From assembly GCA_944324675.1 (NCBI GenBank), contig CALUXE010000001.1, forward strand, positions 6,694-70,693: a DNA stretch of 64,000 bases, read 5' to 3'. The notes under the pieces were generated by a model. That model worked only from the letters and a program-made list of their open reading frames with translations. It made no database searches and had not been told where the DNA came from. Below, one piece after another: positions 17,801 to 19,672 of this stretch. The stretch is from an uncultured Elusimicrobiales bacterium (GTDB lineage: Bacteria; Elusimicrobiota; Elusimicrobia; Elusimicrobiales; Elusimicrobiaceae). The position numbers and the translations under genes were made by a program. Position 1 is the stretch's first letter. Every line of letters begins with the position of its first letter.

Positions 17801-19672
17801 GCCCGTCCAATAATATCCTATCGGCTTATTGGTGCATATTTCGTCAGGACATATTGATGAGGTGAGGCCGTTTCCTGTCCAGTATTTACCTACCGTTACA
17901 TTGGTGCAAGTTTCGCAGCTGCCGGTATTCCAATACATACCCGGCAAAGAACATTCTGTCTCACAGGTCGCGCCATAGAAATAGGTATAACAATCGCAAG
18001 TGCCGGTATTCTCAAAATCTACGCTGTAAGACGGGGTAGGCTCGCCGTCACAAACCTCGGGGCTGTTCTTCGTCCCGTGATAGGAACAATATTGAGAATT
18101 GGGCTGGCTTGTGGGCGGTACGGGAATTTCCGTACACGCAAGCCAATCTTCACATTGGCCTAAGCCGTCGCAGGTTTTCTGACAGGTTCTCGTCTGGCTG
18201 CCGCAAGTGCCGCAGAACTGTACGGTTTCAGGAACTTTAATATAGTTAGGGGCCGTGCAGACGCCCGTCCATTCACCGGTCACATACTCGCCCGTAGAGA
18301 GATTGCATTCCACGCTTCGGACTTGTATTCCGCAAGTTCTTATATTGTCCACATCGGCGCATTCTCTCTCCGCTTGAGGTTTTTCGCCCGTACAAAGTTT
18401 ATAATCGCATTCCCCCCATTGTCCATCGGCTTGGCAGGTCTTCGTTCCACTCCAAAGACAGGTATCGGTTGAAGTTTCCCCGGGGCAGCAGGAAAAATTG
18501 TTTACGCATTCACCTACGGAAGAAACCATCCATTCGCCCGTACTCTGGTTGCAAGTTACCGTTCTGGTTTGAATGCCCATATATTGCCCGTTGCTGCATT
18601 TTGTTCCGCAGCCTACGGTTACGCTCGGTTTTGACGCCTGCGAACACTCGCAGGAATTGGTTTCGCTGCAGTCCGTTTCTTCGCAAGAGTTCTCGTCTAT
18701 ACAAGCAGACCATAACCCGGTTGTCCATTGGCCCGTAGAAGTATCGCAGGTTACGCTCCTTGTTCTTACGCCTTTGTAAGTAGACCCGTTGACGCAATAG
18801 CCGCAGCCCTCTCTGTCCACCGAGGCGGGGCGCTCCGACTCTTTACAGGTTTGGTTGATGCAATCGCTCCAGTCGCTCCAATAGCTGGGGCAGCCTTCCA
18901 AACATTTCTTAATTTGGACTCCGCCGTTACCGCAAGCCTGGGTTATTATACGCCCCTGTATACATACGCTGTTTGTACTTATACAGGTGCCGTTTTCGCT
19001 AAGACATTTGTCGAAAGAACAGCTTATTACCGAAGGCGGAGTTATGGCGGAGGCCTCCTCTTCTTCCGAGACAAACTCGTTACACCCTATCGGCACCGCA
19101 GAGACTATTCCGTCCAACAGCTTACACCCCTCGCCGCTGCAGCCGGTTTCGTCGGTATTGAAATTTCTGTATATGGTCACATCGTCTTCGGGACGAGATG
19201 CCACTACGCAGGTGTTCTGCAAAGTATACGTAAAGTTGCCGGCTTTTACCCCCTGCATGCTGCTCTCGATATTTCCGGTCAGCCCTTCTACAGGGAGAGC
19301 CAAATCATTGAAACTTGACGCATATCCCGATCCCGCCACATAGTTAGCCTGCTGCTTTGAAGCCGCTATCTCCAGCACGTTAAGAGCGTCGCTCATCCTG
19401 CTCTTTTGGACGGAACGGTTGTAAGCCGGCAGCGCTATCGCCGCCAAGATCCCGATAACAAGCACCACCACAAGCAGTTCAACCAACGTAAATCCGCGCC
19501 CAAAAGCGCGTACGGGCTTGGGGGCCCATACGGATTTCTCTTTATCGGACTGGCCGTAAAGACCGCCCGAAAAGGACTTCCAGATATTGCTTAAGAAGCT
19601 ATATATTACCTTTAAATATTTATTCATAAAGATCTCTCTTTTAAACAATTTGACTAAAATAAACAAAAGCAT
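14894..19672 (-). CDS. Giant (about 1577-1592 aa) prepilin-type N-terminal domain protein with cysteine-rich repeat modules (putative pilus/pseudopilus-anchored adhesin)
   Basis: Class-III signal motif FGRG|FTLVELLVVVLVIGILAAIALPAY (Gly60/Phe61, Glu at +5). The pilin-like head has no Cys up to aa ~154, then about 120 Cys follow by hand count. Modules: TSP1-like WSDWSDC / CG..Q.R.V.C units (aa ~240-515), 11 CTNxxxGxYWTGxGG repeats (aa 589-866), about 56-aa CPxGYT...YDYSxCY repeats (aa ~890-1510), and a C-terminal CWNGSWSAWSAC. Start is ATG 19672 or ATG 19627 (MNKYLK). Confidence 0.85.
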   Translation of the reverse strand: MLLFILVKLFKREIFMNKYLKVIYSFLSNIWKSFSGGLYGQSDKEKSVWAPKPVRAFGRGFTLVELLVVVLVIGILAAIALPAYNRSVQKSRMSDALNVLEIAASKQQANYVAGSGYASSFNDLALPVEGLTGNIESSMQGVKAGNFTYTLQNTCVVASRPEDDVTIYRNFNTDETGCSGEGCKLLDGIVSAVPIGCNEFVSEEEEASAITPPSVISCSFDKCLSENGTCISTNSVCIQGRIITQACGNGGVQIKKCLEGCPSYWSDWSDCINQTCKESERPASVDREGCGYCVNGSTYKGVRTRSVTCDTSTGQWTTGLWSACIDENSCEETDCSETNSCECSQASKPSVTVGCGTKCSNGQYMGIQTRTVTCNQSTGEWMVSSVGECVNNFSCCPGETSTDTCLWSGTKTCQADGQWGECDYKLCTGEKPQAERECADVDNIRTCGIQVRSVECNLSTGEYVTGEWTGVCTAPNYIKVPETVQFCGTCGSQTRTCQKTCDGLGQCEDWLACTEIPVPPTSQPNSQYCSYHGTKNSPEVCDGEPTPSYSVDFENTGTCDCYTYFYGATCETECSLPGMYWNTGSCETCTNVTVGKYWTGNGLTSSICPDEICTNKPIGYYWTGHGGTGPTCAVLKCTNADIGQYYTSFSKTAKQAGWVEGTSPTGCLVAACTNNPTGYYWTSGGGVTETSCENSECTNETIGQYWTGHGGTSAACPSADCTNAEPGTYWTSHGGTSATGCALADCTNTVSAGEYYSGSGGASPTGCAVSNCTNKPTGYYWTGAGTPGDSDSCPLEQCTNTTVGQYWTGFGNVSPTCPSAACTNKTVGKYWTGHGGTSATGCAESACTRKPSKAYFTGHGGVSDSCAYACNSGYTRSGDSCVSEANIVSASCPSGYSGTATKKTVIISSLDGDSTQVTYDYSACYREDSTPVIGAVDCPAAYSEGSATNSVYYKYYCEDTAQTAEGLCSSERKAEAWNSVLNYAQCYRDVDATSCEEYSSTFNQGFIAKREWSNEAGNGTRYTEWPSVATQCYYDSTDSCSEYSVTYNLGTATRRHYSGGTTSWSDALSNCYYLSHPTESGQACPSEYNGSSVRTDTVQVFANGSQTTMSSTYNLTSCYKEVAGEAASCSDTSNYKFGTATGNLAGMRYTCTDQNATSTSSCSASTTTIDSTADYQGCYYDQVNNGLACPSGYTAGGNVGTGSLRHFANAAGTADGTTAYQWYNYAQCYKTASDEGQTCPSGYTAGGKVGVKNYKEYCSDSNTENSGYCGTTRIGDVTYDYSACYNTESTGSQACPSGYTVGGNVGVKNYRRYCGNTATETEGACGTTRTANVTYDYSSCYKAAYEGSQVCPRGYTEGGNVGVKNYKEYCGNTATATQGACGTPKIEDVTYNYSNCYKTESTGSQVCPRGYTAGGKVGVKNYKEYCSDSNTENSGYCGTTRIGDVTYDYSSCYKAASNGGQVCPRGYTAGGRVAKKDYKEYCNNTASSRAGSCGTTREEDVSYDYSACYDLGRCNVKVGANYCGTAKKMYGDKSYSGCSKCACTIGTKQKDTSSMGTACTPANYKIRQFCWNGSWSAWSACSASPTPPACPF
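15143..16117 (-). repeat. Six well-conserved ~56-aa (168-nt) tandem coding repeats
   Basis: Units follow G(S)Q.CP.GYT.GG.VG.KNYKEYC.....…G.CGTTR...VTYDYS.CYK, aa ~1186-1510 of the giant protein. More degenerate copies extend upstream to about 17011. Confidence 0.9.
15323..15951 (-). repeat. Perfect 125-nt direct repeat pair (15323-15447 and 15827-15951), in frame, 504 nt apart
   Basis: Base-by-base comparison shows both copies read GGAGTAGTCATAAGTCACATCGCCGATCCTAGTGG...CCCGCGGTATAGCCGC. They encode the identical peptide GYTAGGKVGVKNYKEYCSDSNTENSGYCGTTRIGDVTYDYS in repeat units 2 and 5 of the C-terminal array. Confidence 0.95.
17063..17926 (-). repeat. Eleven ~24-aa tandem coding repeats CTNxxxGxYWTGHGGTSxxxC
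   Basis: For example CTNKPIGYYWTGHGGTGPTC, CTNETIGQYWTGHGGTSAAC, CTNKTVGKYWTGHGGTSATGC. Located at aa ~583-870 of the giant protein. Confidence 0.9.

Follow-up and report, generated by a model that had tools for sequence, protein, structure and literature searches.

The window analysed here, a 64,000-nucleotide stretch of the genome of an uncultured Elusimicrobiales bacterium (assembly GCA_944324675.1, contig CALUXE010000001.1, positions 6,694 to 70,693), holds on its minus strand an uninterrupted open reading frame (ORF) for a giant modular type IV pilin-like protein. An earlier reading of the letters alone (the original prediction) had seen in this protein Trp/Cys and Arg/Cys motifs like those of the thrombospondin type 1 repeat (TSR, or TSP1 repeat). 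We think it somewhat likely that the stalk of this gut Elusimicrobia protein does carry an array of TSR-related modules, in rearranged form. Table 1 collects the features named in the text.

Table 1. Features named in the text. Positions are those of the window, except for P0224, where they are those of its own locus. HMM, hidden Markov model.
Feature	Positions	Strand	Residues	Sequence, score or remark
Giant modular type IV pilin-like protein, uninterrupted ORF	14894-19672	(-)	1592 aa	
Stretch ahead of the cleavage site	19499-19672		aa 1-58	
Prepilin cleavage/N-methylation motif and start of hydrophobic helix	19430-19498	(-)	aa 59-81	RG/FTLVELLVVVLVIGILAAIAL
Presumed pilin globular module	18968-19429	(-)	aa 82-235	placed by position
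Degenerate module u0	18860-18967	(-)	aa 236-271	…GGVQIKKC-LEGC-PSYWSDWSDC
Module u1	18701-18850	(-)	aa 275-324	unit HMM 36.4 bits
Module u2	18503-18652	(-)	aa 341-390	unit HMM 37.1 bits
Short Cys/Trp-rich insert module	18410-18493	(-)	aa 394-421	CCPGETSTDTCLWSGTKTCQADGQWGE; sequence only
Module u3	18254-18397	(-)	aa 426-473	unit HMM 36.0 bits
Weak or degenerate module u4	18131-18244	(-)	aa 477-514	…FCGTCGSQTRTC-QKTC-DGLGQCEDWLAC; motif level only
24-26-aa tandem repeats	17057-17908		aa 589-872	CTN…G.YWTG.GG…..C….
56-aa tandem repeats	15128-16108		aa 1189-1515	CP.GYT.GG.VGVKNYKEYC……….CGTTR…VTYDYS.CY
Tandem Repeats Finder (TRF) array	15260-15959			encloses the 168-aa segment missing from the L027 copy
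C-terminal Arg-then-Trp motif	14930-14998	(-)	aa 1559-1581	CTPANYKIRQFCWNGSWSAWSAC; sequence
Ankyrin-repeat protein	20027-21451	(-)	474 aa	
Smaller pilin-like ORF, Cys-rich C-terminal half	45769-46758	(-)		
Smaller pilin-like ORF, Cys-rich C-terminal half	58185-59105	(-)		
ORF with trypsin-like peptidase domain	53327-57997	(-)	1556 aa	
P0224 (locus L029; GCA_900155215.1, OUNM010047568.1)	206-2890		894 aa	

That the protein is pilin-like, as the original prediction had it, is borne out by Pfam N_methyl (23.5 bits, cutoff 21.2) and TIGR02532 (26.8 bits, cutoff 16.3). The cleavage and methylation motif can be read directly as RG/FTLVELLVVVLVIGILAAIALP, with Gly at -1, Phe at +1 and Glu at +5, and it runs into a hydrophobic helix, as in a class III signal peptide. 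Beyond this N-terminal motif the 1592-aa protein has no Pfam or NCBIfam assignment. In homologs the stretch equivalent to aa 82-235 gives weak ComP_DUS pilin matches (E 0.0009-0.1). About 1350 aa of three repeat families follow the N-terminal motif in the same polypeptide, as in a modular pilin: the TSR-like units (aa 236-514), 24-26-aa CTN..YWTG repeats (aa 589-872) and 56-aa repeats (aa 1189-1515). The closest species-level genome, an uncultured Elusimicrobiales metagenome-assembled genome (MAG; L004), has an ortholog that is 89% identical, in an ORF of 2290 codons.

The first of these families fills positions 18131-18967, an array of four to six small disulfide-type modules of which three are clear and the rest degenerate. 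The original prediction had placed repeated units at positions 18128-18955, which correspond to aa 240-515; there are indeed three there, at 36.0-37.1 bits by the iterated unit HMM described below, and all the motif strings it quoted occur at their coordinates in the minus-strand translation of 14894-19672, including the C-terminal CWNGSWSAWSAC. Module u1 consists of a Pro/Gln-type segment that we call the K segment (CKESERPASVDREGC), an inserted hairpin, the Arg strand GVRTRSVTC (ending at aa 309), the turn DTSTG and the Trp strand QWTTGLWSAC (aa 315-324). In u2 the same parts read CSQASKPSVTVGC, inserted hairpin, GIQTRTVTC (ending at aa 374), NQSTG and EWMVSSVGEC, with Val in place of the second Trp, and in u3 they read CTGEKPQAEREC, an 8-aa insert, CGIQVRSVEC (aa 447-456), NLSTG and EYVTGEWTGVC, with Tyr in place of the first Trp. 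The degenerate u0, not picked up by the unit HMM, reads as a Lys/Gln strand followed by WSDWSDC (aa 265) with an extra Cys in the turn, and resembles a 'G.Q.R.C…C.W..W…C' variant of homologs. Module u4, whose CGSQTRTC ends at aa 497, reaches 6.5 bits with the unit HMM (conditional E 0.09). The insert module at aa 394-421 resembles a second module type, found interleaved with the main type in Myxococcota-like proteins.

Further copies proposed in the original prediction stand at the level of motifs. The 'clean copy' at the C-terminus, CWNGSWSAWSAC at aa 1570-1581 (nt 14930-14965), belongs to a motif that shares the Arg-then-Trp order but escapes the unit HMM. Both smaller pilin-like ORFs end as had been quoted, and the unit HMM finds no module in either.

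With the window region as query, three marginal homologs were found, and these have much cleaner repeat copies. A search of 5.8 billion proteins with a single-unit profile (A1) gave no match at E<=10, since so short a profile does not suit a database of this size. A DNA-pattern scan of species-representative genomes gave 23 loci, almost all of them from Elusimicrobia MAGs of animal or human gut origin and often several to a genome. A search seeded with the nine-unit tandem array of L005 yielded ~150 proteins, nearly all with N_methyl as their sole Pfam domain and with source names of Elusimicrobiaceae or Ca. Avelusimicrobium pilins. The unit HMM (44 positions) was seeded only from L005, another genome, and then taken through two iterations. 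Already the L005-only seed scores the window units at 29.7, 34.6 and 17.3 bits, so the window repeats are far beyond chance, and the repeat family is real. Iteration brings the total to 445 units in 147 proteins, most of them pilin-like proteins of Elusimicrobia, with a few from Myxococcota.

The unit is ~45-50 aa long, typically with six Cys, and has the consensus C-x3-(K)P-x4-(Q)-x-C-x1-5-(C)-G-T-Q-T-R-x-V-T-C-[ND]-T-S-T-G-x-W-x-T-G-x-W-G-x-C-S. Its blocks are the K segment C..(K/R)P..(Q).C, the Arg strand (C)G.Q.R.V.C, the turn [DN].STG and the Trp strand W..G.W..C(S). Conservation is high for Gly (97%), Gln (75%), Arg (87%), the two Trp (94% and 90%) and the flanking Cys (92-96%). In a short variant (…TQTRTC-DTTTG-TWSAWSAC) each strand is two residues shorter.

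An exhaustive profile search of 1.84 billion cluster representatives brought in 217 proteins at E<=0.001. The pilin motif is present in 165 of the 245 family proteins; among the others are signal-peptide proteins and GC-rich lipoprotein-like proteins. Four of the latter (P0128, P0174, P0218 and P0220, one of them from Labilithrix sp., Myxococcota, with RCC1 repeats) have long arrays in which a short module form CG.CG.Q.R.C-D..TG.WS.W..C alternates with C.P…R.CG.GG.Q.C…C.W…C; none of the four has a Pfam TSP1 match. Among the proteins examined, a few hundred protein clusters, the family is confined to bacteria. It is missing from Pfam (2025 copy) and NCBIfam, and literature searches found no published work on these modules or on Elusimicrobia pilin repeats. 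One pilin-like gene with modules lies in a bin labelled Eggerthellaceae (Actinomycetota; L015, CAVHDF010000032.1), an assignment that is probably a binning contaminant; the other genome loci are in Elusimicrobia or unclassified bins.

The original prediction read each unit as a Trp strand, an insert and then an Arg strand, the order of TSP1. This phase proved wrong: the unit is K segment, Arg strand, Trp strand, the opposite of the TSP1 order. Four observations lead to this order: the array ends, the placement of the K segment, a coupling of strand lengths and the strands of AlphaFold2 (AF2) models. An Arg strand opens the array in 119 of 122 proteins and a Trp strand closes it in 112, the commonest pattern being R-W-R-W. 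Ahead of the first Arg strand, 59 of 123 proteins show a K segment of the strict Pro/Gln-type pattern, where the rest appear to have a short Cys-bounded variant; behind the last unit a K segment occurs in just seven of the 123. Within the unit an R-to-C spacing of 1 or 3 goes with a W-to-W spacing of 2 or 4 without exception (122/0/0/164 unique units; Fisher p 4e-84, which overstates independence since the units are related). Between the Arg strand of one unit and the Trp strand of the unit before there is almost no coupling (23/3/70/36, p 0.03).

The first AF2 model covers window aa 272-391 and was built from an alignment of 76 two-unit segments. Its predicted local distance difference test score (pLDDT) is 82 overall and ~90 in both cores (88-94 in u2), the linker between units being of low confidence. 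Strands are predicted at the Arg block and the next Trp block with a four-residue turn in between, and in u2 the Arg strand is broken at the conserved Arg. As a fair trial of the Trp-first unit, the second model (aa 262-326) included the WSDWSDC upstream of u1. Here pLDDT is 77 overall and 84-89 over the Arg and Trp blocks, the strands again flank the DTSTG turn, and the upstream WSDWSDC has pLDDT 52 and no strand. In these models, then, the strands around the Arg strand would be antiparallel, and the Arg strand would pair with the Trp strand that follows it.

In a TSR, WxxW or WxxxxW lies on strand A, upstream of the Cys that ends this strand, and the Arg-bearing strand B comes next (PMC12990085, which also sets out the tryptophan-arginine ladder concept). 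The family unit does have an Arg-bearing strand of the form (C)G.G/Q.R.[RV].C, which aligns with PF19030 (TSP1_ADAMTS) positions 7-29, with the B strand of P0224 and with GIQTRAVWC of THSD7A. On two defining features it departs from the TSR family as now defined, of which it is therefore not a member: the Trp strand follows the Arg strand, and units in native order score below the Pfam gathering thresholds for TSP_1 (PF00090) and PF19030. We had at one point taken the opposite order to mean that the modules are unrelated to TSP1, and dropped this reading after a bacterial protein with bona fide PF19030 repeats surfaced in the tail of the representative search.

PF19030 is in fact the commonest sub-threshold Pfam family on the modules, matching 24 of the 76 two-unit segments (best E 7.5e-5), and the next families match 8. 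Family segments score 15-21 bits against its cutoff of 23.8. What matches is the Arg strand (model positions 7-29) or the Trp strand (1-12); one match extends over positions 8-52.

In the bridging protein, P0224, a pAdhesive_15 domain is accompanied by ten significant PF19030 repeats (E 7e-75, 247.6 bits in total) with four Cys each. The protein is presumably bacterial, because a CNNM/CBS/CorC gene lies alongside on its contig. Each repeat reads C..TKP..SQ.C – ..P.TYS – W.TG.W..CS – G.Q.R.V.C – V.STG…….C, an order of K segment, Trp strand and Arg strand (K-A-B), and its blocks often match those of the Elusimicrobia unit residue for residue (GTQTRTVTCVASTGG compared with GTQTRTVTCDTSTGE). By hhalign, 45 single units against nine clean P0224 repeats give 97.0% probability (E 1e-10, 31 columns). 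The colinear part takes in the K segment, the Arg strand and the STG turn, among which P0224's Trp strand stands as a 13-residue insertion. As controls, the unit profile gives 0.5% against the 56-aa repeats and 0.2% against the 24-26-aa repeats of the same window protein. These two other Cys-rich repeats led us to reject a chance motif similarity within a Cys/Trp-rich protein.

P0224 in turn matches a solved TSR, d1 of THSD7A (8oxr_A), at E 3e-6, and from this match and its PF19030 repeats it follows, as far as sequence can tell, that canonical-order TSR-like repeats exist in bacteria. The same structure is the top PDB match of the single-unit profile (E 0.048, the next being 0.78, among 177,635 sequences), in three separate pieces, the W, B and K blocks falling on its A, B and C strands. 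In the paper on the THSD7A structure a 'type 1A' TSR is characterised by a W-x4-W motif, W(K/R)(L/T)GPW, by one conserved Arg located between βB and βB', and by a pair of Gln and prolines within a stack of layers, CC-W-PP-R-W-QQ-CC. Both Trp, the Arg, the B-strand Gln, and the Gln and Pro of the K segment have conserved counterparts in the Elusimicrobia unit, and in the AF2 models the Arg strand is interrupted at or beside the conserved Arg, as reported for these TSRs.

The block order was examined with constructed sequences, which speak to compatibility, not to history. Three typical family units give partial PF19030 matches of 13.6, 17.1 and 8.7 bits in native order; re-ordered in silico to Trp, Arg, K, the one permutation run against Pfam, they score 30.0, 32.7 and 22.6 bits over positions 1-51/55 (cutoff 23.8), and PF00090 also matches at 18-21 bits. 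All six orders of 279 units were scored with an HMM built from the repeats of the single protein P0224: the two orders with Trp directly before Arg average 19.5 and 18.2 bits and the others 8.6-10.4, and the TSR order outscores the native one in 269 of the 279 units.

From these sequence comparisons we infer, as most likely, that the module is a rearranged relative of ADAMTS/THSD7A-type TSRs and not a canonical TSP1 repeat, its block-level likeness to them being best explained by common ancestry with rearrangement. More tentatively, and just short of an even chance in our estimate, it would represent a genuine bacterial branch of the TSR superfamily, in which strand order was rearranged, the Pro/Gln strand came to be provided from the N-terminal side, the layered Trp/Arg/Gln/Pro core was kept, and the modules were expanded on type IV pilins of gut Elusimicrobia and Myxococcota surface proteins.

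A rearranged fold of this kind can be pictured as follows. The unit would have the same three blocks as the bacterial PF19030 repeat, K-A(Trp)-B(Arg), but with the Trp block behind the Arg strand (K-B-W). In TSRs, strands A and C are both antiparallel to the central strand B. In the Elusimicrobia unit tight turns would join the K segment to the start of B and the Trp strand to the end of B, so the three segments could keep the TSR direction and register with loops elsewhere, and the layered core would probably be retained with different loop connections. We also weighed, and rejected, a derivation from a tandem TSR array by circular permutation alone: K-A-B cannot shift into K-B-W, as the Trp block switches sides. 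One conceivable path, offered as speculation, is that the A strand was lost in a tandem array, that the preceding K segment came to pair with the next B strand, and that the B-C loop, which already starts …STG.(W/T)V…, turned into the Trp strand.

A number of results weigh against descent from TSRs or limit what can be said of the window itself. Scoring with TSP1 profiles, which the original prediction had proposed as a check, detects no TSP1-family Pfam model at E<=10 on the whole protein or on aa 240-515; as a positive control, six metazoan TSRs match Pfam TSP_1 at up to 9e-21, which confirms their identity. Window segments score 9-13 bits on PF19030, one segment giving no match, against the cutoff of 23.8. 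Neither a two-unit profile nor the window region finds anything among PDB sequences at E<=10. Structure prediction, another proposed check, gave strands at the Arg and Trp blocks, while a Foldseek search of the PDB with the two AF2 models showed no TSR among the listed top 50 matches; these are generic beta fragments (best E 0.7-1.4), in a search that had no positive control for such small, irregular domains. By hhalign against the six metazoan TSRs, just 10-13 columns of the W..W..CS motif align, at 20-83% probability. Plain hmmsearch of the family against P0224 aligns Trp strands or Arg strands, never both together, and its match has a bias term of 127 and sums overlapping alternative registers. 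Re-ordering barely helps the window units: u1 rises from 9.6 bits to just 13.3, and u3, at 9.2 bits in native order, no longer matches. They are divergent, with hairpin inserts and Trp-to-Val or Trp-to-Tyr changes, and the TSR link is a property of the family, to which they clearly belong, and is not visible in the window sequence alone. The profiles are short, of low diversity (effective number of sequences about 2-3) and Cys/Thr-rich, and the homology argument leans largely on one bacterial PF19030 protein cluster (P0224/P0257). No pil/gsp pilus machinery genes lie within the 64-kb window.

According to the original prediction, the lack of a significant TSP1 hit together with models lacking the TSR fold would mean that the motif similarity is coincidental. 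The direct TSP1 tests are negative or below threshold, an outcome that agrees in part with this condition and by that standard would make the similarity coincidental; yet at the level of the family it is not due to chance, as PF19030, P0224, 8oxr_A and the re-ordered units indicate. Long-insert TSP1 repeats (Trp strand A, CSxxCG, Arg strand B, strand C) taken from a eukaryotic host would account for the W..W..C and CG..Q.R.V.C motifs, for the ~six Cys per period and for the best hhalign match of W..W..CS to a metazoan TSR A strand (83% over 12 columns), but this origin is very improbable and already largely refuted. It meets no Pfam TSP1 match on the region, arrays that begin with Arg and end with Trp, an Arg strand whose length is coupled to the next and not the previous Trp strand, an upstream WSDWSDC left unpaired in AF2, and W and R strands that never fall in one colinear alignment to true TSR repeats. 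The closest TSR-like relative found is moreover bacterial, as is every family member among the proteins examined.

An independent bacterial Cys-rich beta-hairpin repeat, with a TSR likeness that is convergent or compositional, is unlikely in our judgement and still carries real weight. The shared motifs are short and Thr/Gly/Cys-rich, of a kind that any Trp/Arg-stabilised hairpin might evolve; every direct score against curated TSP1 models is sub-threshold, Foldseek yields generic beta-meander fragments only, and the profile limits and the bias term noted above apply here too. The block order is also unlike that of TSRs and, judging from the orders themselves, out of reach of simple circular permutation. 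Convergence would however have to produce three separate blocks that match, often at residue level (C..TKP..SQ.C, GTQTRTVTC..STG and W.TG.W..CS), an hhalign value of 97% against 0.2-0.5% for controls, a TSR at the top of the PDB matches, and units that, once re-ordered, exceed the Pfam threshold across the whole domain. Type 1 TSRs have six Cys in three conserved disulfides (C1-C5, C2-C6, C3-C4). An idea compatible with either origin is that the Cys clusters (C.C, CxxC) hold zinc in the manner of zinc ribbons instead of forming three such bonds, and we regard it as quite improbable. It could suit a strictly anaerobic host, CxxC and CxC spacings do occur, and there are weak sub-threshold Pfam matches to DZR (8 of 76 segments, best E 0.011) and zinc-ribbon families (3 of 76, 0.0012), all far under the cutoffs. 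Against it, the prepilin signal marks the protein as exported and the modules as extracytoplasmic, the typical unit has an even six Cys, as in TSRs, and in the alignments its Cys columns coincide with Cys that form disulfides in PF19030 and THSD7A.

For the whole protein we propose the following arrangement. Prepilin peptidase would cleave at G/FTLVE, the N-terminal helix would anchor the giant pilin in a type IV filament, probably at its tip, and the rigid Cys-stapled modules with the two downstream repeat families would project as an adhesive or spacer stalk to host or particle ligands. The modules themselves most probably serve as rigid elements, stapled by disulfides, that face the gut environment as adhesins or spacers, a role proposed because of their analogy with TSRs and the adhesin-like architecture of P0224.

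The modules share with ADAMTS/THSD7A-type TSRs (PF19030; THSD7A d1, PDB 8OXR) a size of about 45-55 aa with six Cys, a W-x4-W motif with C(S) after it, a (C)G.Q.R.V.C strand in which a Gln stands two residues ahead of the one conserved Arg, and a C..(K/R)P..Q.C segment with Pro and Gln. They differ in having the Trp strand behind the Arg strand, the Pro/Gln segment N-terminal and not C-terminal, extra hairpin inserts in the window copies, and native units under the Pfam cutoff. P0224 is likewise bacterial and repetitive and probably a surface adhesin, and aligns over the K segment, Arg strand and STG turn; it differs in its canonical order, (K)-A-B-loop-K, its four Cys per repeat, its non-pilin nature and in passing the Pfam threshold.

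In modular type IV pilins such as PilB and PilC of Streptococcus sanguinis and CofB of enterotoxigenic Escherichia coli, the pilin module carries extra C-terminal modules, which the filament presents as effectors, probably at the tip, and many of these modules have no database signatures (PMC8179133). The window protein likewise has a class III signal peptide and pilin module ahead of its additional modules; at 1592 aa it is well beyond the 860-residue extreme of that survey (PMC8179133). It also differs in bearing three unannotated Cys-rich repeat families. Arg strand then WSxWS is also the order in the short family variant …TQTRTC-DTTTG-TWSAWSAC. Class I cytokine receptors show a comparable order in their WSXWS element, an Arg-bearing beta strand, a loop and then the WSxWS-type motif, strand and motif together making up a Trp/Arg ladder; this element lies within a fibronectin type III domain and has no Cys framework, and we claim no relationship.

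TSRs are generally regarded as eukaryotic extracellular adhesion modules, and the original prediction saw interest in a eukaryotic module in a bacterium. This angle is weakened now that the nearest TSR-like relative found, P0224, is itself bacterial. A review infers that apicomplexans acquired their TSRs from animals. What is new here is a set of several hundred bacterial protein clusters with the same three TSR sequence blocks in a different order. If the relationship is true, they would be a natural experiment on re-wiring a small disulfide-stapled layered fold, and the TSR architecture would tolerate re-wired connections and have a substantial unannotated bacterial history, which bears on the origin of the 'metazoan/apicomplexan' adhesion module. 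The modules would also be a large new class of effector for modular type IV pilins, and candidates for the surface structures with which gut Elusimicrobia, a lineage of which little is understood, may bind hosts or particles. Should the likeness be convergent, they still form a new bacterial repeat family deserving a database model. Specialists in domain evolution and in pili should find the result surprising; its basis is a set of short profiles, a single bridging cluster of bacterial proteins and predicted models.

The giant pilin gene lies among chromosomal housekeeping genes: RNase III, acyl carrier protein, PlsX, ribosomal protein S2, EF-Ts, SpoIID-like, IspC, IspG, ProS, NusA, IF-2 and PriA. 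The stretch ahead of its G/FTLVE site is unusually long, 45 aa from a conserved MNKY… to the Gly, and is also kept in the L004 ortholog. Prepilin leaders are usually much shorter than 45 aa, so either the giant pilin has a long leader or the real start codon is further in.

The two other repeat families of the protein have no Pfam match and, by the hhalign controls given above, are unrelated to the TSR-like unit. The 24-26-aa repeats number about eleven in tandem, and more degenerate copies of the 56-aa repeats begin from about aa 892. The window also matches an ENA metagenome contig (ERZ28613582 scaffold_2; L027), whose copy of the giant pilin gene is 100% identical save for one clean deletion of aa 1242-1409 (window 15445-15948). 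The 168 aa (504 nt) missing are three 56-aa (168-nt) repeats. The assemblies differ here either because the copy number of a surface repeat truly varies or because the repeats collapsed in a short-read assembly. One of the smaller pilin-like ORFs (58185-59105) adjoins the 1556-aa ORF with a trypsin-like peptidase domain. Directly upstream of the giant pilin gene lies the gene of the ankyrin-repeat protein, which has an N-terminal hydrophobic segment and is identical in L027; ankyrin repeats are another repeat type commoner in eukaryotes, here in a gut bacterium.

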